A DNA stretch of 64,000 nucleotides from Octopus vulgaris (GCA_951406725.2 OX597834.1:22444001-22508000), one strand, 5' to 3'; positions 6,840 to 51,819 are shown, counted from the stretch's first letter. Made by a program: numbers and translations. Notes: a model not told the origin generated them from the sequence alone.

Positions 6840-7460
6840 TTTAAAGTTCAATGGAATCTAAACCATTGGGTGCGGATTGTGAAGCTCAAGTGATATTTAG
6901 CCATGTGAGGAAGGATCACACAAGCTCAGTGGAATATAAACCATCTGGGGTAAAGAAAGATAATGGAAGCTCAAGTGATATTTAATCATTTGATGCAGAT
7001 TTGTGCAGCTCAGTTGAATCTAAATCATCATATGAAGGATATGGAAGTTCAAGTGATATTTAATCATCTGGTGTGGATCATGCAAGCTCAGTTGAATCTA
7101 AACAACTGGGGAAGATCGAAGCTCAAGTGATATTTAACTATCTGGTGCTGATCATGCAGCTCAGTTCAAACTCAACTATCTGGTGCTGATCATGCAGCTC
7201 AGTTCAAACTCAACTTTCTGGTGCTGACCATGCCAGCTCAGTGGAATATAAATCATCTGGTGAAGATTAGGAAACTCAAGTGATATTTAATTATCTGGTG
7301 CAGATCATGTAACTCAGTTCAACCTAAACCTTCTGGGGGAAGATCTTGGAAACTCAAGTGATATTAAAACCGTCTGGTGGGGCTCGTTCAGCCCAGGTGA
7401 TATTTAACTAATCAAACCAAATCAACAGGTGATGATTGTGAAGCTCAATGGTACTTAACC
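6840..7460. repeat. Degenerate ~38-39-bp minisatellite with ~77-bp dimer structure
   Basis: Alternating gaagctcaagtgatatttaa and caagctcagttgaatctaaa motifs at ~6881, 6921, 6966, 7006, 7044, 7083, 7118, 7157, 7195, 7233, 7271, 7310, 7349, 7389. Confidence 0.85.
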
Positions 7461-24879: not shown

Positions 24880-26470
24880 AATTAAGTTAATTTTTGGCTC
24901 AAAAAGCAAAAGTAAGGCCATGTAGGGGGACATGGAGTTATGTACAGGGAGGGTGTTCATACAAAGAGTTCAGGCCATTTCTGGTCAAGAGAGACTTTGA
25001 ACCGAGCGATCGTCGGCATCTTCACTATCTCGTCCGGCAGCTTATTCCACGGATCCGCAACCCAGACGGAGAAAGCCCCTCTCCTATTGAGATGAAATCG
25101 TCGCAGATAGAGCTTTTCGGAGTGACCCTGCAGCTGATGCTCTGGAGCAGGAGTGAAGAACAGCTCTTTCGAGAGGTTATACTTTCCGCTTATGATGTTG
25201 TGAGCGAGAATGAGATCACCACAGCGGTGGCGTTTTTCTAGAGAATAAAGGTCAAGCATCTTCAGCCTTTCTTCATAAGACAAATGCTTGAGACCAAGAA
25301 CCATGCGGGTAGCCAGCTTCTGGACTCTTTCGAGATGATGTATGTCTTTGAGGAGATAAGGAGAAGAGGCTTGAATCCCGTACTCCAATATGGGTCTCAC
25401 CAGCGTGACATAGAGCGGTAGGAATATGGCTGCTGTGAGCATTCCGAATGACCGTCGAATCAAAAACACAACTCTGCATGCTTTGTTGGCAGCATGGACG
25501 CATTGGGCCGAAGGCGAAAAGGAAGAATCCACAAAGATACCCAGGTCCTTTACCTGGTCAGTCATCTCCAGCAGCAGACGACCCGGCTCGAAATCAAGTT
25601 GAGTTGCAGGAGAGGAGCCAACAAGCAGATGACAGCACTTTGACACGTTCAGACACAGGTCCCATTCGTTTGACCATCTCCAAACTTGTTGGAGGCATCC
25701 ACAAAGATCATCTATAACACTGCAAGGAGTGACCAGTTTGACATCGTCGGCAAATAGAAGGGTGTGTTGCGTGAGGTCGTCGGGCAAGTCATTTATGAAG
25801 ACTAAAAATAATAAGGGCCCAAGCACTGAACCATGAGGCATGCCACTGCTCGCACTGGAGACATCGGACAGCGAACCATTAACTTGGACTTGGAAGGAGC
25901 GATCTGAGAGGAAGGCACCAACCCATCGTACAATATCCGGATGGAAACTATATGCTTGAAGCTTGACAAGTAATAGGCGGTGGTTAACCGAGTCAAAAGC
26001 TTTGGCAAAGTCCAATAAAACGATGTCAACAGCATCACCATCATCCAGGATACACGTCACCAATTCTTCCATTACCAGTAAGTTGGTCAAGCATGATCTC
26101 TTCAGCACGAAGCCGTGTTGGGAATCAAAGATAGAGGCTGTGTTTTGGAGGTGAAGCAACATACTTTTCTTGAGGATGGTTTCGAACATCTTACTGATTA
26201 TTGAAGGGAAACCGGTCGGTAGTTAAGCGGGTCTTTGCGGCTCCCTTTCTTGAAAATCGGGCAGATTATCGCTGTTCTCCAGTCCGCACGTACAACACCC
26301 ATCGCCAATGACATATTGAATAGAAGTGTTAAAGGATCGCAGATGACCAGAGCCAACGCTTTGATAACCTGTGGGTGTATGCCGTCAGAGCCGTGACCCT
26401 TGTTGACATCGAGGCCTTGAATGACGCTTTCGACTTCGTCCCGAGTGATGACCAATCTAGGCATATCATA
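24880..26470 (-). mobile_element. 5'-truncated CR1-clade-like LINE (RT domain and C-terminus)
   Basis: ORF 24957-26189 (410 aa) with QHGF...RSCLTNL, LDFAKAFDSV, GMPHGSVLGPLLF, FADD, KDLG, RPILEY, LERVQ. Upstream frameshifted ORF 26198-26464 (PIFKKGSRKDPLNYRPVSL). Visibly more GC-rich than the flanks; interrupts a TTAA-type MITE. Confidence 0.92.
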
Positions 26471-29101: not shown

Positions 29102-30223
29102 CAGTGGTTCTCAACCATTTTTTTCTGCCTATGAACCCTTTTGATTCTTAATCTATTCAGGTGGACCTCCCCTGCCCTAGCCATTCAATGTTTTAAAAAT
29201 CCTATTATATTTTTATGATTGAATATTATTAGGAATTGTATAAAAAAAGGCTGTTAAAATATTTTGTGCATTGTAGAAGAATAACCAATTTATTGCGAAT
29301 AAATTTTAACATGGGGGTCATGAGGAATGCAGGCCTGGGGGATAGCAGCATTGGAGTGAGGATTGGAGGAAGAAATATTAATAACCTTCGCTATGCAGAC
29401 GATACAACCCTGCTGACGGAGAGTGGTAAGGATCTGGAGGATCTTGTCCTGCTGGTCAAGAAAGAGAGTGAGAAATTTGGGCTGTACCTCAATGTTAAGA
29501 AAACAAAGATCATGTCAACAGCAGCCACAACAAACATCAGCATCAAGATCGATAATGAAGAGATCGAAGTGGTTGATGATTTTCATCTTCCTTGGCTCCA
29601 AAATAAATTGAGATGGTGACTGCACTCCAGAAATAAGACAGCGGATAGTACTAGGCAGAGAGGCAATGGTCAGTATGAGCAGGGTCTGGAAGAGTAGAGA
29701 CATCAGACTCGCTACCAAATGCAGATTGGTGAATGCAATTGTCTTCCCAATAGCAACATATGGATGCGAGTCCTGGACACTAAAGAAAGCTGACCAGAAG
29801 AGAATTAATGCATTCGAGCTTTGGTGTTGGAGAAGACTTTTACAGATTCCATGGACAGCGAGGCTCACCAATGGAGAAGTCCTTAAGCAGATCAGGCCGA
29901 ATATGTTGCTAGAAGCTAGGATCACCAAGCATAGCTTGGCATATTTTGGTCATATTATGCGGAGAAAATCCCTGGAGAAGGACATCATGCTCGGAATGGT
30001 CAGTGGCAAGAGAGGAAGAGGCCGACCAAGAACCCGCTGGCTTGACACCATCAAGAGTGATACCAGAATGGACATAGCCAATCTGAAAGAAGTGGCCCAG
30101 GATAGAACTGACTGGAGGACACTGATCCAACGAGTAACCTAGAGTCGACTTCGACTGAGCGGATAAATAGATAGATAAATTTTAACAAGAACATCTTATA
30201 TGGACACTGGTTGAGAACCATTG
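29102..30223. mobile_element. hAT-like MITE interrupted by the RTE
   Basis: TIRs cagtggttctcaa... / ...ggttgagaaccattg. Related uninterrupted copies at ~40428-40678 and ~31790-32007 (reverse). Confidence 0.65.
29312..30174 (+). mobile_element. 5'-truncated RTE-clade (BovB-like) LINE with 13-bp TSD
   Basis: GVRIGGRNINNLRYADDTTL...GLYLNVKKTKIM and VFPIATYGCESWTLKKADQKRINAFELWCWRRLLQIPWTAR...GRPRTRWLD; one frameshift near 29585; (atag)n tail; TSD ataaattttaaca at 29299-29311 and 30175-30187. Confidence 0.93.
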
Positions 30224-35291: not shown

Positions 35292-37039
35292 CTGAAAGGT
35301 ACAAAACGTAAGACGTAAGTTTAGATATACTAATGGTAATTTTAATGGGAAAACAAATTGGCAAGAAAATTAGTAAGCAACTGAGGAGATAAACTGAAGC
35401 CCTGTAAGTGAATTTGGTGGAGAGAGGCAGAAAGGAACATTATCACCATCATTATTTAATGTCTGGCCAAACAGAAGACTGCACCAAGTTTCACCATCTG
35501 TTGTGGCAGTTTTTATAGCTGAATGCCCGTCCTAACACCAACCACCTTACACATACACACACACACATGTATATATATATATATATATATATATAACAAT
35601 TTAGGTGTAAAATTCAGGTAAGGGATATTAGATATCCAAAGAATTTATTGATTTATATTACCTACATCAATACCAATGTTATAGAAAGGAATATTTATAG
35701 ATTTAAATTCAGGAATTTACATAATTTCAGTTAGATTATTTACTTATTTATGATTAAGCTTGCTCTTATAAAGCGTTTTTGTAAAGCCTTAGCAGTTAAA
35801 AATATTTTCAATTGATATTTTTCATCAAATATTTAAGCAGGATGAAGCATCATCACATACTTAAACGGATTTGATTATTAGTGAAAAACTTCATTTTATT
35901 AATGAAGCAGAATCAGCTGTAATTTATGAAATGTATCGTTTGTTTGTATAGAATATTTAAATTGAATTGAATTTATAATTGTTCAATTCATTGTTTTGTT
36001 TTTTATTTCTCATATATATATATATATATATATACATACATACACACATATAGAAAGAGAGACAGAGAGTATGTATTTTTGCACCCTTTGTTAGCTAGTT
36101 TTTCTGTCTATAAGAGTAGGATTAGAATGAAAAGAAAGATGAGAAAATCATATATACATACATACAAAATTGGTTATAGGTTTTAACCTTTGCTTATTTA
36201 TTCATTCTATAATTAAGAGTAATTTGATTTGTTCCCGAATCCCTCATTTATGTATAGTAATGCCCTCTATATAATATATATATATAGCCACTACACACAT
36301 TTTTTTCTGTGTCCCTTTCTGTAGAAGAGCATAGACTTGAAACGTAAAAGACGTTTTCTATTCCTGAGCGTTATACTAATACATCTGTTTGTTTTGTACA
36401 CCACCTGTCTACGTCTTTTGTTCTTTTCGTAAACTCTCCTTATATATATATATATATATAATGTGCAGGAGTGGTTGTGTGGTAAGTAGCTTGCTTACCA
36501 ACCACATGGTTCCAGGTTCAGTCCCACTGCATGGCAGCTCAGGCAAGTGTCTTCTACTATAGCCTCAGGCCAACCAAAGCTTTGTAAGTGGATTTGGTTG
36601 ACCGAAACTGAAAGAGGTCCATCGTGTATATGTGTGTGTGTCCCGAACATCGCTTGACAACTATAGAAGGAAAATCAGAAAAATACAAAGTAACTAATTA
36701 ATTAGGTTTGTCAAAGAAATCGGTTTCTAAGGAAGACGTGTGTACTATGACAGAAACTAAATTCTAAAGAAAGATGCATTCAGCATCCCAGTATTAATTT
36801 AGAGGTAGTATAAATGAATTAAAAATTAACAAGGCATATGTTTAGAGAAGACAATAAGATAAATATGACAAGAAAATAGATAAATATAGTGGAAAGTATA
36901 TATATATATAGAGAGAGAGAGATAAAGAGAAAACTATATATATATAACATGTCTGTTCACTCCAGGTCAGTCCAAATCCACCAAAGAGATATAGTAACTC
37001 TGTGTGTGTGTGTGTTTTATTTAATCTATAGAAAAAAAA

Positions 37040-38125
37040 AATGAAGTTTCTCTTCTCTAGGAGCCAGGACAGTACTTGAACCCTGATACAGGTGTTCAGC
37101 ACATCCTGTGTGTGTCTTGATACCTACACCTTTACCCACCAGACTACCAGGTCCCCTCCAACAGATGTAGCCAAAATTAGATATTTAAGTCTATCATATC
37201 AATAAGAAATTAAAAAAATAGATTTAAATATCTCATTTTCGACTACATCTATTGGGGGGACCCAGTGGTCTGGTGGGTAAAGGTGTAGGTATGAAGGCAT
37301 ATGGTGTGCCGGACACCTGTATCAGGGTTCAAGTACTGTCTGGAGTCTACAAAAGATTATTATTTTTTTTTTTTTTTAAATTTGTGTGTGTGTATGTGTG
37401 TTATTTAAAAAAAAAAAAGTCTCTCTTCTCTGGGCTCCCGGACAGTACTTGAACCCTGATACAGGTGTTCAACACACCATGTGTCTACTACCTACACCTT
37501 TACCCACCAGACCACCGGGTCCCCCCCAATATATGTAGTTAAAAATGAGATACTTAAATCTATTTTATCAATTATAGAAAAATAGATTTAAATATGTCAT
37601 TTTCGACTACCTCTATTGGGGGGACCCGGTGGGTAAAGGTGTAGGTAGTAGACACATGATGTGTTGAACACCTGTACCAGGGTTCAAGTACTGTCCGGGA
37701 GCCCAGAGAAGAGATTTCTTTTTTTTTTTTTTTTTTTAAATAACACACATACACACACACAAATTAAAAAAAAAAAAAATTAATCTTTTGTAGACTCCAG
37801 ACAGTACCTGAACCCTGATACAGGTGTCCAGCACACCATATGCCTTCATACCTACACCTTTACCCACCAGACCACTGGGTCCCCCCAATAGATGTAGTCG
37901 AAAATGACATATTTAAATCTATTTTTTTTATTTCTTATTGATAAAATAGATTTAAGTATCTCATTTCCAACTACAGATGTTGGGGGGACCCAGTGGTCTG
38001 GTGGGTAAAGGTGTAGGTATGAAGGTGGGTAACGGTGTAGGTAGTAGACACATGATGTGTTGAACACCTGCATCAGGGTTCAAGTACTGTCGTAGAGAAG
38101 AGAAACTTTTTGCTTTTTTTTTTTT
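37040..38125. repeat. Nested palindrome of six alternately oriented tRNA-like units
   Basis: Units at about 37060-37153(-), 37259-37348(+), 37432-37521(-), 37623-37705(+), 37792-37881(-), 37987-38092(+). The whole block is an inverted repeat centred near 37570. More decayed copies continue to ~38610. Confidence 0.9.
37259..37348 (+). ncRNA. tRNA-like / Pol III-type unit (representative copy)
   Basis: A-box-like TGGTCTGGTGG, B-box GGTTCAAGTAC, D-stem GTCT/AGGT, anticodon stem TAGGT/ACCTG with an intron-like insert, oligo-T at ~37362. Acceptor and T stems are imperfect. Confidence 0.4.
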
Positions 38126-40859
38126 AAATTTAATCTGTAGAAAAAAAAAATTAAAAGTACTTTGGAAATTCTGGAAGAGATTGAAACCCTCTACCAAGTG
38201 TTAAATTAGTAGTAATCAACACCTCAACCCACAAGACTACCAAAGCAGTTGCAATTTGTGTGTAAATTATGAGATATTTAAACCTATTTTTATTATTGAT
38301 CTAGTGGGGGTGGGGATGGATGTGTAGGCAAAGGGATAGGTAACTTTTATTTTCTTTAATTTTTTTTTGGCGAAGCAGAAAGAAAGAACCCAAAAATCTT
38401 AGTTTACACCTAGGGCAGTGTTGAACCCTGAACATTCATTGTGTTCTTTGCTACTCACTGCCTAAATCTTTATCGACAAGACTACCAGGCATCCCCAAAA
38501 AAGGGATATTTAAGATATTTAAAGCATCACATCACTAATGATGAAAATGGATTTAATTAGCTAATTTTTCACCACAACATTGTAGCACTGAGGGTAAGGG
38601 TGCTCATGAGAAGAATTTTAATACATCGGTGAAGGGACCAAACAATGGGAAGCAGAATGGAATAATGTCATTTTTTTTTTTTGCCATGGTCTCTAGAGAA
38701 TCAAAAGATAAGTGCACACTATTATTAGGACCACCTCAGTGGTTAGGAGGATTAACTAAATATAAGAAGTCACATTTAGTTTATGTGTGTAGGTATATAT
38801 ATATATATATATATATATTGACAGACAACAATGTCTTTATTCTCAGGGACACCAAAAATAGCTACAAAACAGGATATTAAAAATCAATCACAGCATCAGA
38901 TCAATAACCAATTATGAAATATCTAGTAACAGACAGAAGAATTATTTGACAAGGAAAACAAAGACGAATCTCTTGTATGAAATATAAGCCATTGTAACCA
39001 AATAAAATCTAGGAACTCAGCATTAAACAAAGTAGATATTACATCAACCTTCCCATATAATGGAATGGTGAATATAAACCAGGTTCCAAAACCAACACAC
39101 CAGTAGAAAGGAATGGGATACTAGCTATGAACTCAAAAACAATATCAACATTGTAATCAAACTATTCTGATGCCAACCTATACGAGACAGCTTTTGGTTC
39201 CAAGAAACAGACTTCCTATTTTAGTGATTAAAATTGAAACTTTCCATCAAACTATCATGTTAATCTATGTTCCAAACATCAGATTAATAAAATTATTTCA
39301 TTAAATTCTTCATTATTTTCAAAAATTTATTGAAACAAAAGGGTTAAATAGGAGTTATTGATTTGATCCATCTCTACCTTTTACAGAATTGCAAACATTT
39401 GAGCCAGACCTCAGTTTCCTTGTCAACCAACTTGCCAGTTTAATCCTTTTCATGCCAACCGACATGAAACTGCCTCTAGTTTTAAAATGAGCTAAATTAA
39501 AACTTTATCTGCAAGATCCTTTATGTGAATTCGTATGTTGAAACAAATCTTGTTGTATTTGGAGAGAGTCGTTATGCTAAAATAATTAACACACACAAGG
39601 GAGTGGAATGGAAACCTAGACACAACTAAATAAAAACTTTTCATCAAAATTTCATGGTAATTCATGTTGCAAACACCAGATTAATTAATGATAACAAATA
39701 TACTAAATTCTTTATTTTCGAAATTCAAGTAAGAAAAGGGCCAAAGAAGCAAATTAGAAAAATGCTATAGTCATTATGAATACTGAATTCTACAGAGACA
39801 TCACATTTTCCCTACTTTAAAGGGTTTTTTTTTTTCCTTCGCAAATGTAAATAAACCCAATCTGTTTCTTAAACGAGGGACATATTCATACAGCACAGAA
39901 TCTTTTCACCCCAAATGGAGGTGAGCGATTGGTTAAAATTGCCAAAATGCTCGATTTTAAAGTGGAAATATGTTATAACATATAGAACTTTCTCAATAAA
40001 GCCAAGAAAAATTGATGTTTTATAAACACATTCTACCAGTATACAAAGTTTAAAAGTGTTTAGTTAACTAGAAATTGTGTTGACATCTGCCGTTCAAAAG
40101 GAAAAGATCCAATGTGGATAAACCAGAAAATGTTTAAGAAGGAATGTTGCTACTTAATGAACATTGAACGTTAACCCAGAAATGTAAATTTACAAGAGAA
40201 GAACAATATGTAACACCTTTAAAGAATCAACTACAACAAGTATAAACATACCATAAATTTCAGAACAACTGTTAAAGACTGAATTTCTGAGACATATAGA
40301 CACAACTTTACAGGCTTCAGTAAAACCTACTGGGAGCACTAAGTTTTAGAAGAGATGATTTGGATGTGTTAAACCACCTTTTGAAAATAAGGTAACAAAA
40401 ATGCAGAATAGAAAATTGAGTCTAACACAGTGGTTCTCTATCATATTTTGTGTATGGACTCCTTTGAGTTCTATCTTAACTCGGGATATGGGACTCTAAT
40501 TCATGTCTAAAATCTATTATATTTTTATGATTGAATATTGTTAGGAATTGTATTTAAAAAAATGTTTGAATATTTTGAGTATTGTAGAAATGTGACTAGT
40601 TTATTGCACATAAATTTTGACAACAAAATCTTCTATGGAACTCCAAGGACCATATGGATCCTAGTTGAGGATCACTAGTTAAGCAGATGGTCAAGGGGTT
40701 GTCAAACTGGTGGACAAGGGGTCACCGTCAAACAGATGTTGAAAGGGTTTTAGTGAAAGAGGGGACATATTCAAGCTGGCAAGAGGGGCCATGGTCAAGC
40801 TAATAGGCAAGGGGTCATAAGCAAAAAATCATAGTCAAGCAATCAGTTAAAATAATGTA

Positions 40860-43800
40860 CCATAAAAATCCATGTATTTTATGCACTTTTTTGCGCAAAA
40901 ACAAAAATAAATTTTAGTGGGTGCGTAAACTACATAAGTAATTCTGTTTCCAGAATTTTTTTTAGAAATTTTCTTTGTTGAAAAATGATGTAAAAATTTG
41001 TATGGAAAATTGACTCATTTAATGTCAGAATAGGTTTTTACAGAAAAAGATAATGAAGTTGACTTTTATTTATGCTGGACAGTATAATACTTAGATTTTC
41101 TGTATAAATTTACAAAAACCATTAAATGGTCAACTACTTTTTAAAGTTTGACATTCATGCTGGCAATCATGGTCTGGGCCATATTTTACATTGCTTGGAG
41201 TTTCTACCTATCGCTATGGAACCCAGCAATTACCTTAAATATATCAGTTTTTCTCCGCTTAAGGAGTCTAGCTTGCGTTTGCCTCCAGGAAGTAATTGCT
41301 CGCTTCCTCCGCATTCGGACAATGAAATTCATCACTGCCAACGACAATATCATAATTCATCCTTGCACATAGCGTTCCTACAGAAACATTCATTTGCCTC
41401 ATACAATATTTAATGTCATTTCACATTTATGTTGAATTATGCAGCAATCTTATGTTCTCTTCAGAGAACACTTATAATGTATGTGTTACCAGTTCTTTTG
41501 GTATAGTAGATTTTTGCTATTTTTGTTTGTCTCCTCACAGATGTGAGGAGTCATTTCTTAAATTTCGCACCTCTCTTGTTCAATAAACACCGAGTTAAAC
41601 TTGCAAAACTGTTTCTTTTCGCCTTTCAATTTTTAATGTTTATTTAAGCAGGTTACCAAACTATCAGTATAGTCTCCCAGCTAATTTGGTAATGACAAAT
41701 TTTAAGTTTGCTTGAAATTTTATAAGTGTGAAATTGATTAAAATTACTATACTCCGTATCAAAGGTTCCGACAGGAATAGGCAGAAAAGCAGTGCTTGAG
41801 ACAAGAAGGCACTTTCGACCAATCAAAATTCTATTTACATAATCAGTTTGATCAATCACCTTCCTCTGTCGGTTGAGTAAAGTGTCATCCAAGCTGATGT
41901 TTATTAGTAATTAAACTTAATTTGCAACACTTGTGCATATTTATCAGCTTTGTTTTTGTTGATGTTTCTTATCAACAACTTTTCCTGTGGTCGTGATTTG
42001 AGAAGACATACAGCAGTATGCTAAAGATTGGTCATAATCTCTTGTGGGCAAGAAATGTAAAATAAAGTCTATTATAAACAACAAATACACTTCGTAATTT
42101 AATAGCTCTCACTGTGATACCTGTTCAACAGAAATTATTTTTATTTAATGAAAATTTAATAAAATCTAGTCATAACTAACTGAAATTATGCTAAATGCAA
42201 CGAAATTGAAAACCTTTTATCCCTGGCTAGATCGGCAATTCTGGAAACTTTTGGGTGCAAATTTGACATGAGTAGCTTTTTTTTATCAATTTTTATCCTG
42301 AAAATCACCCCCATAAACTACACAGGTGCACAAATTACATGGGTTTTTATGGTAGTCAAAAATACAACTAAATTGAAAACCTATCCCTGGCTAGATCGGC
42401 AATTCTGGAAACTTTTGGGTACAGATTTTACACGAGTAGAAGCTTTTTTTTATCAATTTTTATGCTGAAAATCACCCCCATAAATTACACAGGTGCACAA
42501 ATTACATGGGTTTTTATGGTAGTCAAAAATACAACTAAATAAAAAACCTTCTATCCCTGGCTAGATCAGCAATTCTGGAAAACTTTTGGGTGCAAATTTT
42601 ACACGAGTAGAAGCTTTTTTGTTATAAATTTTTATCCTAAAAATCATCCCCATAAACTACACAGGTGCACAAATTACATGGGTTTTTATGGTAGTCAAAA
42701 ATACAACTAAATTGAAAACCTATCCCTGGCTAGATCGGCAATTCTGGAAACTTTTGGGTGCAATTTTACTCGAGTAGAAGCTTTTTTTTATCAATTTTTA
42801 TCCTGAAAATCACCCCCATAAATTACACAGGTGAACAAATTACATGGGTTTTTATGGTAGTCAAAAATACAACTAAATTGAAAACCTATCCCTGGCTAGA
42901 TCAGCAATTCTGGAAACTTTTGGGTACAGATTTTACACGAGTAGAAGCTTTTTTTGTTATCAATTTTTATCCTGAAAATCACCCCCATAAATTACACAGG
43001 TGCACAAATTACATGGGTTTTTATGGTAGTCAAAAATACAACTAAATTAAAAACCTTCTATCCCTGGCTAGATCAGCAATTCTGGAAACTTTTGGGTACA
43101 TATTTTACACGAGTAGAAGCTTTTTTTTTTATCAATTATTATCCTGAGAATCACCCCCATAAATTACACAGGTGCACAAATTACATGGGTTTTTATGGTA
43201 GTCAAAAATACAACTAAATTAAAAGCCTTCTATCCCTGGCTAGATTGGTAATTCTGGAAACTTTTGAGTGCAAATTTTACAGGAGTAGAAGCTTTTTTTT
43301 TATCAATTTTATCCTGAAAATCACCCCCATAAACTACACAGGTGCACAAATTACATGGGTTTTTATGGTAGTCAAAAATACAACTAAATTGAAAACCTAT
43401 CCCTGGCTAGATCAGTAATTCTGGAAACTTTTGGGTGCAAATTTTACACGAGTACAAGCTTTTTTTTTATCAATTTTTATCCTGAATATCACCCCCATAA
43501 ATTACACAGGTGCACAAATTACATGGGTTTTTATGGCAGTCAAAAATACAACTAAATTGAAAACCTATCCCTGGCTAGATCGGTAATTCTGGAAACTTTT
43601 GGGTGCAAATTTTACACGAGTAGAAGCTTTTTTTTCATCAATTTTTATCCTGAAAATCACCCCCATAAATTACACAGGTGCCCAAACTACATGAGTTTTT
43701 ATGGCAGTCAAAAATACAACTAAACTGAAAAGCCTTCTATCCCTGGCTAGATCAGCAATTCTGGAAACTTTTGGGTGCAAATTTTACTCGAGTAGAAGCT

Positions 43801-46800
43801 TTTTTTTATCAATTTTTATGCTGAAAATCACCCCCATAAATTACACAGGTGCACAAATTACATGGGTTTTTATGGTAGTCAAAAATACAACTAAATTGAA
43901 AACCTATCCCTGGCTAGATCGGTAATTCTGGAAACTTTTGGGTGCCAATTTTACACGAGTACAAACTTTTTAGCAATTTTTATCCTAAAAATCAGCCCAT
44001 GAACTACACAGGTGCACAAATTACATGGGTTTTTATGGTAGTCAAAAATACAACTAAATTGAAAACCTTCTATCTCTGGCTACATCGGTAATTCTGGAAA
44101 CTTTTGGGTGCAAATTTTACACGAGTAGAAGCTTTTTTTTATCAATTTTTATGCTGAAAATCACCCCCATAAATTACACAGGTGCACAAATTACATGGGT
44201 TTTTATGGTAGTCAAAAATACAACTAAATTGAAAACCTATCCCTGGATAGATCCGTAATTCTGGAAACTTTTGGGTGCAAATTTTACACGAGTACAAGCT
44301 TTTTTTTTATCAATTTTTATCCTGAAGATCACCCCCATAAATTACACAGGTGACCAAATTACTGGGGTTTTTATGGCAGTCAAAAATACAACTAAATTGA
44401 AAACCTTCTATACCTGGCTAGATCGGCAATTCTGGAAACTTTTGGGTGCAAATTTTACACGAGTAGAAGCTTTTTTTTAGCAATTTTTATCCTGAATATC
44501 ACCCCCATAAACTACACAGGTGCACAAATTACATGGATTTTTATGGTAGTCAAAAATACAACTAAATTGAAAACCTATCCCTGGCTAGATCGGTAATTCT
44601 GGAAACTTTTGGGTGCCAATTTTACACGAGTACAAGCTTTTTTTTAGCAATTTTTATCCTGAAAATCAGCCCATGAACTACACAGGTGCACAAATTACAT
44701 GGGTTTTTATGGTAGTCAAAAATACAACTAAATTGAAAACCTATCTCAGGCTACATCGGTAATTCTGGAAACTTTTGGGTGCAAATTTTACACGAGTAGA
44801 AGCTTTTTTTTATCAATTTTTATCCTGAAAATCACCCCCATAAATTACACAGGTGCCCAAATTACATGGGTTTTTATGGCAGTCAAAAATACAACTAAAT
44901 TGAAAACCTTCTATACCTGGCTAGATCGGCAATTCTGGAAACTTTTGGGTGCAAATTTTACACGAGTAGAAGCTTTTTTTTTAGCAATTTTTATCCTGAA
45001 AATCACCCCCATAAATTACACAGGTGCACAAATTACATGGGTTTTTATGGTAGTCAAAAATACAACTAAATTGAAAACCTATCCCTGGCTAGATCGGTAA
45101 TTCTGGAAACTTTTGGGTGCCAATTTTACACGAGTACAAGCTTTTTTTTTAGCAATTTTTATCCTGAAAATCAGCCCATGAACTACACAGGTGCACAAAT
45201 TACATGGGTTTTTATGGTAGTCAAAAATACAACTAAATTGAAAACCTTCTATCTCTGGCTACATCGGTAATTCTGGAAACTTTTGGGTGCAAATTTTACA
45301 CGAGTAGAAGCTTTTTTTTATCAATTTTTATGCTGAAAATCACCCCCATAAATTACACAGGTGCACAAATTACATGGGTTTTTATGGTAGTCAAAAATAC
45401 AACTAAATTGAAAACCTATCCCTGGATAGATCCGTAATTCTGGAAACTTTTGGGTGCAAATTTTACACGAGTACAAGCTTTTTTTTTATCAATTTTTATC
45501 CTGAAGATCACCCCCATAAATTACACAGGTGCACAAATTACATGGGTTTTTATGGTAGTCAAAAATACAACTAAATTGAAAACCTATCCCTGGCTAGATC
45601 GGCAATTCTGGAAACTTTTGGGTGCAAATTTTACACGAGTAGAAGCTTTTTTTTATCAATTTTTATCCTGAAAATCACCCCCATAAATTACACAGGTGCA
45701 CAAATTACATGGGTTTTTATGGTAGTCAAAAATACAACTAAATTGAAAACCTATCCCTGGCTAGATCGGTAATTCTGGAAACTTTTGGGTGCAAATTTTA
45801 CTCTAGTACAAGCTTTTTTTTTAGCAATTTTTATCCTGAAAATCACCCCCATGAACTACACAGGTGCACAAATTACATAGGTTTTTATGGTAGTCAAAAA
45901 TACAACTAAATTGAAAACCTATCTCAGGCTACATCGGTAATTCTGGAAACTTTTGGGTGCAATTTTACTCGAGTAGAAGCTTTTTTTTTATCAATTTTTA
46001 TGCTGAAAATCACCCCCATAAATTACACAGGTGCACAAATTACATGGATTTTTATGGTAGTCAAAAATACAACTAAATTGAAAACCTATCCCTGGCTAGA
46101 TCGGCAATTCTGGAAACTTTTTTGTGCAAATTTTACACGAGTAGAAGCTTTTTTTTTATCAATTTTTATCCTGAGAATCACCCCCATAAATTACACAGGT
46201 GCACAAATTACATGGGTTTTTATGGTAGTCAAAAATACAGCTAAATTAAAAGCCTTCTATCCCTGGCTAGATTGGTAATTCTGGAAACTTTTGGGTGCAA
46301 ATTTTACACGAGTACAAGCTTTTTTGTTATCAATTTTTATCCTAAAAATCACCCCCATAAACTACACAGGTGCACAAATTACATGGGTTTTTATGGTAGT
46401 CAAAAATACAACTAAATTGAAAACCTTCTATCCCTGGCTATATCGGTAATTCTGGAAACTTTTGGGTGCAAATTTTACTCGGAGTACAAGCTTTTTTTTT
46501 TATCAATTTTTATCCTGAGAATCACCCCCATAAATTACACAGGTGCACAAATTACATGGGTTTTTATGGTAGTCAAAAATACAACTAAATTGAAAACCTA
46601 TCCCTGGCTAGATCGGTAATTCTGGAAACTTTTGGGTGCCAATTTTACTCGACTAGAAGCTTTTTTTTATCAATTTTTATCCTGAGAATCACCCCCATAA
46701 ATTACACAGGTGCACAAATTACATGGGTTTTTATGGTAGTCAAAAATACAACTAAATTGAAAACCTATCCCTGGCTAGATCGGCAATTCTGGAAACTTTT

Positions 46801-49800
46801 GGGTACAGATTTTACACGAGTAGAAGCTTTTTTTTTTATCAATTATTATCCTGAGAATCACCCCCATAAATTACACAGGTGCACAAATTACATGGGTTTT
46901 TATGGTAGTCAAAAATACAACTAAATTAAAAGCCTTCTATCCCTGGCTAGATTGGTAATTCTGGAAACTTTTGGGTGGAAATTTTACACGAGTAGAAGCT
47001 TTTTTTTTATCAATTTTTATCCTGAAAATCACCCCCATAAATTACACAGGTGCACAAATTACATGGGTTTTTATGGTAGTCAAAAATACAACTAAATTGA
47101 AAACCTTCTATCCCTGGCTAGATCGGTAATTCTGGAAACTTTTGGGTGCAAATTTTACACGAGTAGAAGCTTTTTTTTTATCAATTTTTATCCTGAAAAT
47201 CACCCCCATAAATTACACAGGTGCACAAATTACATGGGTTTTTATGGTAGTCAAAAATACAACTAAATTGAAAACCTTCTATCCCTGGCTAGATCGGTAA
47301 TTCTGGAAACTTTTGGGTGCAAATTTTACACTAGTAGAAGCTTTTTTTTATCAATTTTTATCCTGAAAATCACCCCCATAAATTACACAGGTGCACAAAT
47401 TACATGGGTTTTTATGGTAGTCAAAAATACAACTAAATTGAAAACCTATGCCTGGCTAGATCGGCAATTCTGGAAACTTTTGGGTGCAATTTTACTCGAG
47501 TACAAGCTTTTTTTTTATCAATTTTTATCCTGAATATCACCCCCATAAACTACACAGGTGCACAAATTACATGGGTTTTTATGGTAGTCAAAAATACAAC
47601 TAAATTGAAAACCTATCCCTGGCTAGATCGGTAATTCTGGAAACTTTTGGGTGCCAATTTTACACGAGTACAAACTTTTTTTTTAGCAATTTTTATCCTG
47701 AAAATCACCCCCATAAACTACACAGGTGCACAAATTACATGGGTTTTTATGGTAGTACACATAAAGATACACTCAAAATACAACTACATGGGTTTTTATG
47801 GTAGTCAAAAATACAACTAAATTGAAACCCTATCCCTGGCTAGATCGGTAATTCTGGAAACTTTTGGGTGCAATTTTACACGAGTACAAGCTTTTTTTTT
47901 ATCAATTTTTATCCTGAAAATCACCCCCATAAACTACACAGGTGCACAAATTACATGGGTTTTTATGGTAGTCAAAAATACAACTAAATTGAAAACCTAT
48001 CCCTGGCTAGATCGGTAATTCTGGAAACTTTTGGGTGCAAATTTTACACGAGTAGAACTTTTTTTTTAGCAATTTTTATCCTGAAAATCACCCCCATAAA
48101 CTACACAGGTGCACAAATTACATGGGTTTTTATGGTAGTCAAAAATACAACTAAATTGAAAACCTATCCCTGGCTAGATCGGTAATTCTGGAAACTTTTG
48201 GGTGCAAATTTTACACGAGTAGAAGCTTTTTTTTATCAATTTTTATCCTGAAAATCACCCCCATAAACTACACAGGTGCACAAATTACATGGATTTTTAT
48301 GGTAGTCAAAAATACAACTAAATTGAAAACCTTCTATCCCTGGCTAGATCGGTAATTCTGGAAACTTTTGGGTGCAAATTTTACTCTAGTAGAAGCTTTT
48401 TTGTTATCAATTTTTATCCTGAAAATCACCCCCATAAATTACACAGGTGCACAAATTACATGGGTTTTTATGGTAGTCAAAAATACAACTAAATTAAAAC
48501 CTTCTACCCCTGGCTAGATCAGCAATTCTGGAAACTTTTGGGTGCAAATTTTACACGAGTACAAGCTTTTTTTTATCGATTTTTATCCTAAAAATCACCC
48601 CCATAAACTACACAGGTGCACAAATTACATGGGTTTTTATGGTAGTCAAAAATACAACTCAAAAATACCTATTGAAAACATGGGTATCCTGGCTAGATCG
48701 GCAATTCTGGAAACTTTTGGGTGCAATTTTACCGAGTACAAGCTTTTTTTTATCAATTTTTATCCTGAAAATCACCCCCATAAACTACACAGGTGCACAA
48801 ATTACATGGGTTTTTATGGTAGTCAAAAATACAACTAAATTGAAAACCTATCCCTGGCTAGATCGGTAATTCTGGAAACTTTTGGGTGCCAATTTTACAC
48901 GAGTACAAGCTTTTTTTTTAGCAATTTTTATCCTGAAAATCACCCCCATAAACTACACAGGTGCACAAATTACATGGGTTTTTATGGTAGTCAAAAATAC
49001 AACTAAATTGAAAACCTTCTATCCCTGGCTAGATCGGTAATTCTGGAAACTTTTGGGTGCAAATTTTACTCTAGTAGAAGCTTTTTTGTTATCAATTTTT
49101 ATCCTGAAAATCACCCCCATAAATTACACAGGTGCACAAATTACATGGGTTTTTATCAATCACCCCATAAACTACACAGGTGCACAAATTACATGGGTTT
49201 TTATGGTAGTCAAAAATACAACTAAATTAAAAACCTTCTATCCCTGGCTAGATCAGCAATTCTGGAAAATTTTGGGTGCAAATTTTCGGTAATTCTGGAA
49301 ACTTTTGGGTGCCAATTTTACTCGACTAGAAGCTTTTTTTTTATCAATTTTTATCCTGAGAATCACCCCCATAAATTACACAGGTGCACAAATTACATGG
49401 GTTTTTATGGTAGTCAAAAATACAACTAAATTGAAAACCTTCTATCCCTGGCTAGATCGGTAATTCTGGAAACTTTTGGGTGCCAATTTTACCGAGTAGA
49501 AGCTTTTTTTTATCAATTTTTATCCTGAGAATCACCCCCATAAATTACACAGGTGCACAAATTACATGGGTTTTTATGGTAGTCAAAAATACAACTAAAT
49601 TAAAAGCCTTCTATCCCTGGCTAGATTGGTAATTCTGGAAACTTTTGGGTGGAAATTTTACACGAGTAGAAGCTTTTTTTTTATCAATTTTTATCCTGAA
49701 AATCACCCCCATAAATTACACAGGTGAACAAATTACATGGGTTTTTATGGTAGTCAAAAATACAACTAAATTGAAAACCTTCTATCCCACGCTACATCAG

Positions 49801-51794
49801 TAATTCTGGAAACTTTTGTGTGCCAATTTTACTCGAGTAGAAGCTTTTCTTTTATCAATTTTTATCCTGAGAATCACCCCCATAAATTACACAGGTGCAC
49901 AAATTACATGGGTTTTTATGGTAGTCAAAAATACAACTAAATTGAAAACCTATCCCTGGCTAGATCGGCAATTCTGGAAACTTTTGGGTACAGATTTTAC
50001 ACGAGTAGAAGCTTTTTTTTTATCAATTTTTATCCTGAGAATCACCCCCATAAATTACACAGGTGCACAAATTACATGGGTTTTTATGGTAGTCAAAAAT
50101 ACAACTAAATTAAAAGCCTTCTATCCCTGGCTAGATTGGTAATTCTGGAAACTTTTGGGTGGAAATTTTACACGAGTAGAAGCTTTTTTTTTATCAATTT
50201 TTATCCTGAAGATCACCCCCATAAATTACACAGGTGCACAAATTACATGGGTTTTTATGGCAGTCAAAAATACAACTAAATTGAAGACCTTCTATCCCTG
50301 GCTAGATCGGTAATTCTGGAAACTTTTGGGTGCAAAATTTACTCGAGTAGAAGCTTTTTTTTTATCAATTTTTATCCTGAAAATCACCCCCATAAATTAC
50401 ACAGGTGCCCAAACTACATGGGTTTTTATGGCAGTCAAAAATACAACTAAATTGAAAACCTTCTATCCCTGGCTAGATCGGCAATTCTGGAAACTTTTGG
50501 GTGCAAATTTTACACGAGTAGAAGCTTTTTTTTTTAGCAATTTTTATCCTGAAAATCACCCCCATAAATTACACAGGTGCACAAATTACATGGGTTTTTA
50601 TGGTAGTCAAAAATACAACTAAATTGAAAACCTATCCCTGGCTCGATCCGTAATTCTGGAAACTTTTGGGTGCAAATTTTACACGAGTACAAGCTTTTTT
50701 TTTATCAATTTTTATCCTGAAGATCACCCCCATAAATTACACAGGTGCACAAATTACATGGGTTTTTATGGCAGTCAAAAATACAACTAAATTGAAGACC
50801 TTCTATCCCTGGCTAGATCGGTAATTCTGGAAACTTTTGGGTGCAAATTTTACACGAGTAGAAGCTTTTTTTTTATCAATTTTTATCCTGAAAATCACCC
50901 CCATAAATTACACAGGTGCACAAATTACATGGGTTTTTATGGTAGTCAAAAATACAACTAAATTGAAAACCTATCTCTGGCTAGATCGGCAATTCTGGAA
51001 ACTTTTGGGTGCAAATTTTACACGAGTAGAAGCTTTTTTGTTATCAATTTTTTTCCTGAAAATCACCCCCATAAATTACACAGGTGCACAAATTACATGG
51101 GTTTTTATGGTAGTCAAAAATACAACTAAATTGAAAACCTTCTATCCCTTCATAGATTGGCAATTCTGGAAACTTTTGGGTGCAAATTTTACTCGAGTAG
51201 AAGCTTTTTTTTTATCAATTTTTATCCTAAAAATAACCCCCATAAATTACACGGGTGTACAAATTACATGGGTTTTTATGGTAGTGAAAAATACAACTAA
51301 ATTAAAAACCTTCTATCCATGGCTAGATCAGCAATTCTGGAAACATTTGGGTGCAAATTTTACTCGAGTAGAAGCTGTTTTTTTATCAATTTTTATCCTG
51401 AAAATCACCCCCATAAATTACACTGGTGCACAAATTACATGGCTGTTTATGGTAGTGAAAAATACAACTAAATTGAAAACCTTCTATCCCTTCATAGATT
51501 GGCAATTCTGGGAACTTTTGGGTGCAAATTTTACTTGAGTAGAAGCTTTTTTTTTATCAATTTTAAACCTGAAAATCAGCCCCATAAATTACACAGGTGC
51601 ACAAATTACATGGGTTTTTATGGTAGTCAAAAATACAACTAAATTGAAAACCTTCTATCCCTGGCTAGATCGGCAATTCCAGAAAGTTTTGGGTGCAAAT
51701 TTTACTCGAGTAGAAGCTTTTTTTTTATCAATTTTTATACTGAAAATCACCCCCGTAAATTACACAGGTGCGCAAATTACATGGGTTTTTATGG
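40860..51794. mobile_element. Tc2/pogo-like DNA transposon relic (~1.5 kb body) with tandemly amplified right end
   Basis: Left end TA|CCATAAAAATCCATGTATTTTATGCAC (40860) versus reverse complement of each monomer end CCATAAAAACCCATGTAATTTGTGCAC: 24/27 identical, TA on both sides. End architecture (CCRTA...GCAC TIR, internal GGGTGC subrepeats) resembles TcMar-Tc2 elements. No intact transposase seen. Confidence 0.75.
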
Positions 51795-51800
51795 TAGTTA
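42200..51800. repeat. Satellite array, ~168/171-bp monomer, roughly 57 copies
   Basis: Tandem monomer aaattgaaaacc(ttc)tatccctggctagatcgg(c/t)aattctggaaacttttgggtgcaaattttacacgagtagaagct(n)atcaatttttatcctgaaaatcacccccataaattacacaggtgcacaaattacatgggtttttatggtagtcaaaaatacaact. The gtcaaaaatac landmark falls at 42355, 42522, 42694, 42860 and 43029. Confidence 0.97.
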
Positions 51801-51819
51801 AAAATTTGGGTCTATATTA

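Follow-up and report, generated by a model that had tools for sequence, protein, structure and literature searches.

Layout of the window cluster

The window analysed here is a 64,000-nucleotide stretch of the Octopus vulgaris genome (C21:22444001-22508000 of the 2.8-Gb assembly in 227 contigs) and contains a cluster of tRNA-like units placed on alternating strands (Table 1). Units 1 to 6 follow one another in the order -,+,-,+,-,+, with B boxes at -37082, +37326, -37455, +37681, -37814 and +38077, and constitute three head-to-head pairs with AT-rich spacers of about 95-100 bp, a T-run following each of the six units on its own strand. The alternation, the pairing around a shared self-complementary spacer and the oligo-T run after every unit were described in a sequence-only reading of this DNA and are borne out, whereas the unit size of ~90 nt given there was an underestimate, the distance from predicted start to T-run being ~106-130 nt. 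Self-complementarity of the spacers arises because either half serves as the upstream promoter region of one unit. The partial deletion noticed in unit 4 corresponds to 8 nt missing from its A box, and unit 6 is indeed chimeric, as an internal duplication of ~24 nt joins the two subtypes with the loss of 7 nt from the terminal stem. What had been taken for fainter copies of the same units further to the right are additional units, but of other types of the family, with unit 7 intact, unit 9 shortened upstream and units 8 and 10 present as remnants. Units 4, 8 and 10 are likely dead copies. In a tree of the family, window units 1, 2, 3, 5 and 6 form one clade (96/96) and unit 7 falls on the opposite side.

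Table 1. Units and upstream boxes of the window cluster, with positions counted from the first letter of the window
Feature	Position	Strand	Remarks
Unit 1, predicted Pol III transcript	37038..37159	-	A box T 37146, B-box core 37078, T-run from 37041
Unit 1, upstream TATA-like box	37173..37194	-	Two mismatches, profile score 12.5
Unit 2, upstream TATA-like box	37218..37239	+	Consensus ATAGRTTTAARTATCTCATTTT; core common to 7SL genes
Unit 2, predicted transcript	37253..37366	+	A box 37266, B core 37330, T-run from 37363
Unit 3, predicted transcript	37415..37528	-	
Unit 3, upstream box	37542..37563	-	
Unit 4, upstream box	37582..37603	+	
Unit 4, likely damaged copy	37617..37722	+	A box broken by 8-nt deletion
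Unit 5, predicted transcript	37776..37887	-	
Unit 5, upstream box	37901..37922	-	
Unit 6, upstream box	37946..37967	+	
Unit 6, two-subtype chimera	37981..38110	+	Internal duplication, 7-nt terminal-stem loss
Unit 7, different family type	38153..38252	-	Box, A box, B box and T-run all intact
Unit 7, upstream box	38266..38287	-	
Unit 8, possible remnant	38298..38369	+	G-rich start and T-run, without box or B box; read by eye
Unit 9, another type	38390..38530	-	Short upstream part (box to A box, 47); has B box and T-run
Unit 10, remnant	38547..38682	+	Weak box (score 9.7), partial A box, without clear B box, terminal T-run

AT microsatellites and SINEs of octopus type in the sequence suggest a cephalopod. 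The cluster is flanked by SINEs, LINE fragments and a 167-bp satellite, with no host gene evident nearby among open reading frames of at least 120 amino acids, and, as had been claimed, it is unlike the SINEs of the window, self-BLAST of the region giving no match between them. Contigs assembled from public runs (three runs of unrecorded kind, from three samples and two studies) cover unit bodies and spacers piecewise, and none of them spans the whole palindrome, the count of three pairs thus being that of the assembly.

The stems drawn in the sequence-only reading can be recovered within the window. In an eight-row alignment, 90% of the cells of the D-stem GTCT/AGGT, the stem TAGGT/ACCTG and the insert hairpin pair, as compared to 27-49% with slid partners. 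Five pairs are changed on both sides in this alignment, although few events lie behind them, and some are due to units belonging to other types or to offsets in the alignment. For the insert hairpin, the proposed covariation comes down to a single pair in which both bases differ between the two subtypes (A-U to G-C), probably the result of one event, and the hairpin is not seen in other types. The TAG 'anticodon' assigned to units 3, 4 and 6 is an artefact of counting across a 1-nt indel, as after alignment GAAG corresponds to GTAG, and the aligned triplets at this position are CAA, GAA and GTA. Neither the anticodon differences nor the covarying inner hairpin, on which the earlier reading had placed its emphasis, extends to the family as a whole.

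A genome-wide family of alternating units

A genome search for one unit together with its spacer revealed clusters on C2, C6, C25 and C26, matched mainly through the spacer and the 5' end of the unit; units in these clusters alternate as well, but their bodies differ. The upstream 21-mer has 44 exact occurrences in the genome (control, 0), and a strict pattern combining the upstream box with the A box, with the gap left free between 22 and 46, gives 109 matches against one in the reversed control, hence the combination is not due to chance. Among the 100 matches listed out of these 109, located on 17 contigs, the gap is exactly 34 in 63 and 33-36 in 84, with 16 shorter gaps and none longer than 36. 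An 8-nt deletion is common to 10 of these 100 listed matches, showing that damaged copies have been propagated.

With a relaxed grammar run on 45 segments (216 kb, covering part of the matched loci), at least 150 units in 41 clusters are obtained. Applied to control loci totalling 154 kb, an earlier, looser grammar gave four matches, all of them SINE, tRNA or chance sequence. Clustering of the units at 70% identity yields 21 groups, of which 19 were used as types after the removal of one false match within a SINE-like stretch and one cluster without a clear box. Adjacent units alternate in strand in 95 of 107 pairs. Upstream boxes in head-to-head orientation lie 27-41 bp apart, and predicted unit lengths range from 91 to 118 nt (5th-95th percentile). 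The only match obtained in metagenomes lies inside an apparent bacterial coding sequence and was taken as chance.

No account of such a family was found in the literature covered by the search, although an entry in a repeat library or a small-RNA annotation may exist, and none of the family motifs occurs in approximately 24,000 characters of supplementary material to the octopus microRNA paper PMC9699675. The earlier suggestion of an undescribed Pol III ncRNA cluster is supported, with the window cluster being one of dozens, and a paired tRNA-like family with a 7SL-type hybrid promoter has probably not been described before.

Conserved promoter elements and terminators

Across the 19 types, the upstream box, the A box, the B box and the T-run are maintained at fixed spacing while the bodies diverge. 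Between-type identity amounts to 0.80 for the 22-bp upstream box, 0.68 for the A box and 0.82 for the B box, values that are upper bounds, since units were selected by their boxes and copies without them are undercounted. The nine other regions of the unit have between-type identities of 0.29-0.51 against the 0.25-0.32 expected from composition. A T5 run is present 10-50 nt past the B box in 132 of the 150 units, as compared to a background frequency of 0.10, and its occurrence is strand-specific, as within 10-40 nt past the B box T5 is found in 100 units and A5 in only 6. Inside the bodies T4 is absent from all 19 types (about 5-7 expected), which is not counted as evidence, because A4 is depleted too (1 against 4-5 expected) and the depletion is thus not strand-specific. 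A YR initiator at the predicted start, present at +31 in 10 of the 19 types, is no more than suggestive.

The upstream box was scored with a profile of its 12-bp core, using a threshold of at least 12. In the 7SL cluster on C5, all eight genes examined carry the box with scores of 14-15 at exactly -32. No score of 12 or above was observed upstream of 12 U6, 8 vault-like, 30 tRNA and 6 MRP genes and 6 tRNA-Sec hits, nor in 2000 background stretches. Of 11 dispersed 7SL copies, 8 were amenable to parsing. A single one of these carries the box, likewise at -32 and together with a clean T-run. The other seven are without the box, and the sequence following their 3' ends is repeat-like, as expected of retrocopies. 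This calibration amounts to about two independent promoters, because the eight clustered 7SL genes are a single tandem family. It places the predicted start of the units about 12-13 nt before the A box, a position that fits a tRNA-type layout. U6, MRP and tRNA-Sec loci have a different upstream arrangement, consisting of ATGCAAAT and, in some copies, a TATA box; a resemblance of the units to tRNA-Sec was discarded, as the true tRNA-Sec genes sit elsewhere and without the box.

According to PMC8362101, 7SL, EBER, vault and BC200 genes use A and B boxes together with an upstream TATA-like element, located near -30. The octopus units combine internal A and B boxes, an upstream TATA-like box and an oligo-T run on the coding strand, with the start placed by prediction, and the core of their box is that of the 7SL genes of this genome at the same distance. 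Their bodies are unlike that of 7SL, they have no Rfam match, and they form a large multi-type family in palindromic clusters. On these sequence features, it is well supported that the units are, or once were, Pol III genes.

Relationship to tRNA and predicted RNA structure

When unit bodies are compared with 12 tRNAs, z-scores of 3.7-6.3 are obtained for nine and of 1.5-3.0 for the remaining three, the likeness residing in the boxes, and the best D-arm match, found for one type, is with tRNA-Arg(TCG). Comparison with 7SL, U6 and MRP reveals no resemblance (z about 1 or lower). The units are nevertheless not working tRNAs, as had been anticipated. ARAGORN reports no tRNA gene in the window or in 32 loci, and with introns allowed it accepts none of 150 units at the default threshold and three at 90%, the calls at thresholds of 70-80% being inconsistent noise. 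Rfam model RF00005 has no match in the window up to E=10. All other Rfam matches in the window are generic hairpins below the cut-off, including microRNA matches that were set aside as generic long hairpins far under it, and in 17 loci no Y RNA, sbRNA, 7SK or other Rfam family exceeds its gathering score. In the window units, an A lies opposite G53 and the variable region is too short for a tRNA.

Over the 19 types, the acceptor, anticodon and D stems show no excess of cognate pairing (p = 0.18, 0.49 and 0.31, respectively). For the T-arm, in contrast, cognate strands pair with -6.1 kcal/mol as compared to -3.9 kcal/mol for swapped strands, a difference reached in none of 20000 permutations (p<1e-4). 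Without the B-box bases this signal is reduced to p=0.011, a value given equally by one of two controls, and related types are not independent. TTCA lies in a hairpin loop in 15 of the 19 types, and several types form hairpins of 8-12 bp over the B box. This B-box hairpin is the only element that covaries family-wide, and it does so modestly. Folding z-scores for predicted transcripts of the window units range from -0.6 to -2.3 and are mostly weak, with values below -2 in three of the 19 types. Given the weak folding and the absence of covariation in the acceptor, D and anticodon stems, the cloverleaf is to be regarded as a relic in the type present in the window and not as a trait of the family.

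Spread of the family and the possibility of a selfish cassette

Members of the family have probably spread as cassettes rather than as single units, as copies bring along the upstream box and neighbouring units. One lineage occupies more than 25 loci with a cassette of 0.3-2.4 kb, at roughly 75-93% identity and with unrelated flanks. In these loci the cassette is joined to a degenerate SINE-like stretch and to a LINE 3' fragment, which reads as RTE-like from its translation. In 10 of 22 loci the shared sequence stops at the tail of the LINE fragment, a hint that the cassette may have been copied in its entirety with the help of a LINE, but it stops earlier in the other 12. Left ends are ragged (255-2394 bp shared among the 22 loci), and no convincing target site duplication was found in these loci. 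A second lineage with a cassette of about 2 kb and about eight types is present on C3, C6, C9, C17, C21, C24 and C26. Clusters on C10 and C25 and that of the window are more isolated, with their boxes intact, and no LINE tail lies beside the window cluster.

Such dispersal is what would be anticipated if the units were passengers of selfish DNA, with Pol III promoters retained for the benefit of the element itself, as in Helenus and Cassandra TRIMs or in the viral VA, EBER and TMER arrays, or with the units being mostly decaying cargo. PMC10886601 describes for Helenus and Ajax the same pattern, in which promoter motifs are kept and RNA structure is not, and this counts in favour of the selfish explanation. 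The likeness to Helenus TRIMs extends to tRNA-like sequence and to dispersed repeats in molluscs and other taxa; however, as described in the same source, Helenus has two direct LTRs, a PBS, a PPT and TSDs of 4-5 bp (PMC10886601), whereas octopus units are inverted, have ragged ends and no TSD was found. Identity with a Helenus TRIM was rejected due to the lack of direct LTRs and of fixed ends and the alternating orientation. Since strands alternate and every unit has a terminator, the transcript of a unit could carry neither its own upstream box nor its neighbours. The persistence of unique, highly diverged clusters with intact boxes, including that of the window with no LINE tail, further argues against passenger DNA. 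A viral origin was rejected, as the pattern has no match in viral contigs. Taken with the spread of the dispersed lineage, these observations make the selfish cassette an unlikely explanation.

The nature of the unit as a foldback repeat or MITE, as had been alternatively suggested, is not upheld: in the 22 loci the left ends are ragged and none of the candidate TSDs is convincing, and types whose bodies are near background identity retain the same promoter spacing. Octopus SINEs OK, OR1 and OR2 are derived from tRNA and share with the units a tRNA-like head with A and B boxes. The SINE-like stretch beside one cassette resembles the bodies (z=5.5), and two SINE copies of the window do so weakly (z 1.5-1.8). 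In contrast to these SINEs, the units themselves have no LINE-derived tail and, in a search that covered box-bearing copies, always occur with their upstream DNA and partner units; SINE identity was rejected on the retained upstream box, the clustering and the alternation of adjacent pairs.

Proposed function and comparison with known systems

The preferred explanation, to which we assign a probability of roughly 0.6, is that the units constitute a tRNA-derived, non-decoding family of likely Pol III genes with a 7SL-type box, whose predicted RNAs of about 100-120 nt would act as tRNA mimics or decoys. By analogy with hybrid promoters, TFIIIC would bind the A and B boxes and TFIIIB would be positioned by the TATA-like box. 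Pol III would start about 31-32 bp past this box, in the window at 37159, 37253, 37528, 37887, 37981 and 38252, and stop at the T-run, such that each compact spacer would serve two genes firing outwards. In the predicted RNA, the B box would lie in a T-loop-like hairpin and the terminal stem would be loose, with a variable middle largely free to drift. Its candidate partners are La, dsRNA binders and general proteins of Pol III transcripts or structured RNAs, as for snaR, BC1 and EBER. Growth of the family would have proceeded via inverted local duplication and copying of whole cassettes, and not by retrotransposition of single units. The decoy role is proposed by analogy only. Contigs of four presumed-RNA runs, which show no ends, strand or level in a stretch containing a common repeat, cover bodies and spacers of a related cluster alike, with some crossing the spacers.

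In its way of working, the family may be most like primate snaR. As described in PMC3045588, snaR are lineage-restricted Pol III genes of ~117 nt with ~30 clustered copies, which spread by segmental duplication and comprise several diverged types. Common to both are an ancestry from a small RNA or SINE, clustering, spread by duplication, diverged types and an oligo-U end. snaR genes are, according to the same source, Alu/7SL-derived, with an intragenic promoter and a tandem arrangement (PMC3045588). No homology with the octopus units is implied. The octopus family, unlike snaR, has a tRNA-like body, an upstream box, alternating divergent pairs, at least fivefold larger size and types that are far more diverged, and an ancestry of the BC200/snaR type finds no support, since the body is not homologous to the Alu domain of 7SL (z=1.0 against its first 130 nt).

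Likeness to vault RNA (RF00006) includes a length of ~100 nt, an A box near the 5' end, a B box near the 3' end, a variable middle and a T-run, but none of the units matches RF00006. The description of the window cluster as vault-like is therefore not retained: the genome has a separate vault-like family with 29 RF00006 matches, 20 of them over the cut-off, which lie all elsewhere and include no locus of the window family; the upstream box is absent from the eight vault-like genes scored.

A function at the DNA level, with the arrays acting as TFIIIC/TFIIIB-bound boundaries or nucleosome-free regions comparable to tDNA insulators and ETC sites and the RNA being a by-product, would account for conservation limited to protein-binding boxes, with bodies near background and a single covarying hairpin. 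Transcription is indicated instead by the narrow distance at which strand-specific terminators follow and by the fixed spacing of the 7SL-type start-site box, and T-arm pairing persists, weakly, outside the box, so that this explanation appears improbable. Least credible is a role as precursors of small guide RNAs, in which tRF- or miRNA-like pieces would be excised from the B-box hairpin or the trailer and body diversity would represent guide diversity. In its favour are the B-box hairpins of 8-12 bp formed by several types and the precedents of snaR-A, reportedly the source of a miRNA (PMC8127991), and of the small-RNA precursors of MHV68, the TMERs. Against it, most hairpins are below pre-miRNA length and there is no seed-like conservation within types, body positions being among the most variable.

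It is rare for a new family of Pol III genes to come to light, and lineage-specific ones such as BC1, BC200 and snaR are small. With at least 150 copies in 19 types that escape ARAGORN and Rfam, the family of Pol III genes proposed here would rank among the largest lineage-specific ones, and it would provide a non-coding layer in an animal group whose RNA biology is a subject of study. A bolder version holds that at least 20 distinct tRNA-mimic RNAs, transcribed from 7SL-type promoters in divergent pairs, form a new lineage-specific layer of RNA regulation, for example as decoys or guides that act on dsRNA-binding and editing enzymes in particular tissues, and that inverted duplication, slippage and chimerism within the palindromic clusters give rise to new types; this we consider quite unlikely. 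The family makes exact and inexpensive predictions of start sites, ends and Pol III occupancy. Its analysis also gives a definition of the 7SL-type upstream promoter box in this genome, and its paired cassettes represent a route for the multiplication of tRNA-like genes.

Cassettes and derivatives of the tRNA-like family

The cassette at L138, a locus fetched from the genome searched, and at 21 other loci joins Pol III-like units to a SINE-like stretch and the 3' end of an RTE-like LINE, and may be a composite retroposon. The LINE tail constitutes the end of the shared cassette sequence in 10 of these 22 loci, and an inverted repeat of ~40 bp flanks the cassette at L138 only. Truncated family units, which retain the upstream box, the B box and the T-run with the loss of the A box, are organized head-to-tail in ~120-bp tandem arrays at three loci, and these arrays are a satellite-like derivative of the family. 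At another locus, a family unit is represented by its 3' half, fused to a stretch that we take to resemble mitochondrial 16S rRNA.

Vault-RNA-like family and other small RNA genes

A multi-copy vault-RNA-like family is also present in the genome, with 20 of 29 matches above the Rfam RF00006 cut-off, and the copies at L113-L120 exhibit a terminal stem and T-runs. No paper on this family was found in a literature search pairing octopus with vault RNA. At least 13 7SL/SRP RNA genes form a tandem array with a common upstream box at -32, and a second promoter variant of such genes is located elsewhere on the same contig. U6 variants in tandem, altered in the 5' stem, are preceded by an intact ATGCAAAT and a TATA element. 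Two identical tRNA-Sec genes lie 57 kb apart, both with octamer-like and TATA elements upstream.

Other repeats in the window

The large satellite comprises ~57 copies of 167/171-bp units with ~92% identity. A degenerate tandem repeat with a period of 38/39/78 bp could be coding. Two ORFs are LINE reverse-transcriptase-like as judged by eye.

Positions of the features in the genome searched (G000; C, contig; L, fetched locus) and in the window
Feature	Locus	Position	Remark
Cassette	L138	3560-4500 of locus	
Truncated-unit arrays	L063-L065	C30:9.96 Mb; C30:17.17 Mb; C34:0.47 Mb	
16S-like fusion	L062	near C26:36806195	
Vault-RNA-like examples	among L113-L120	C4:15615042-15615131; C8:49747988-49748082; C10:10706849-10706943	RF00006 matches
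7SL/SRP array	L142-L149	C5:143.07-143.12 Mb	
7SL/SRP, second promoter variant		C5:124164724	
U6 variants	L109-L112	C1:139.42 Mb	
tRNA-Sec genes	L150; L151	C24:10907805; C24:10964902	mutually inverted
Satellite	window	42193-51805	
Tandem repeat	window	6881-7365	
LINE RT-like ORF	window	24957-26222	421 aa, - strand
LINE RT-like ORF	window	29233-30142	broken, RTE-like
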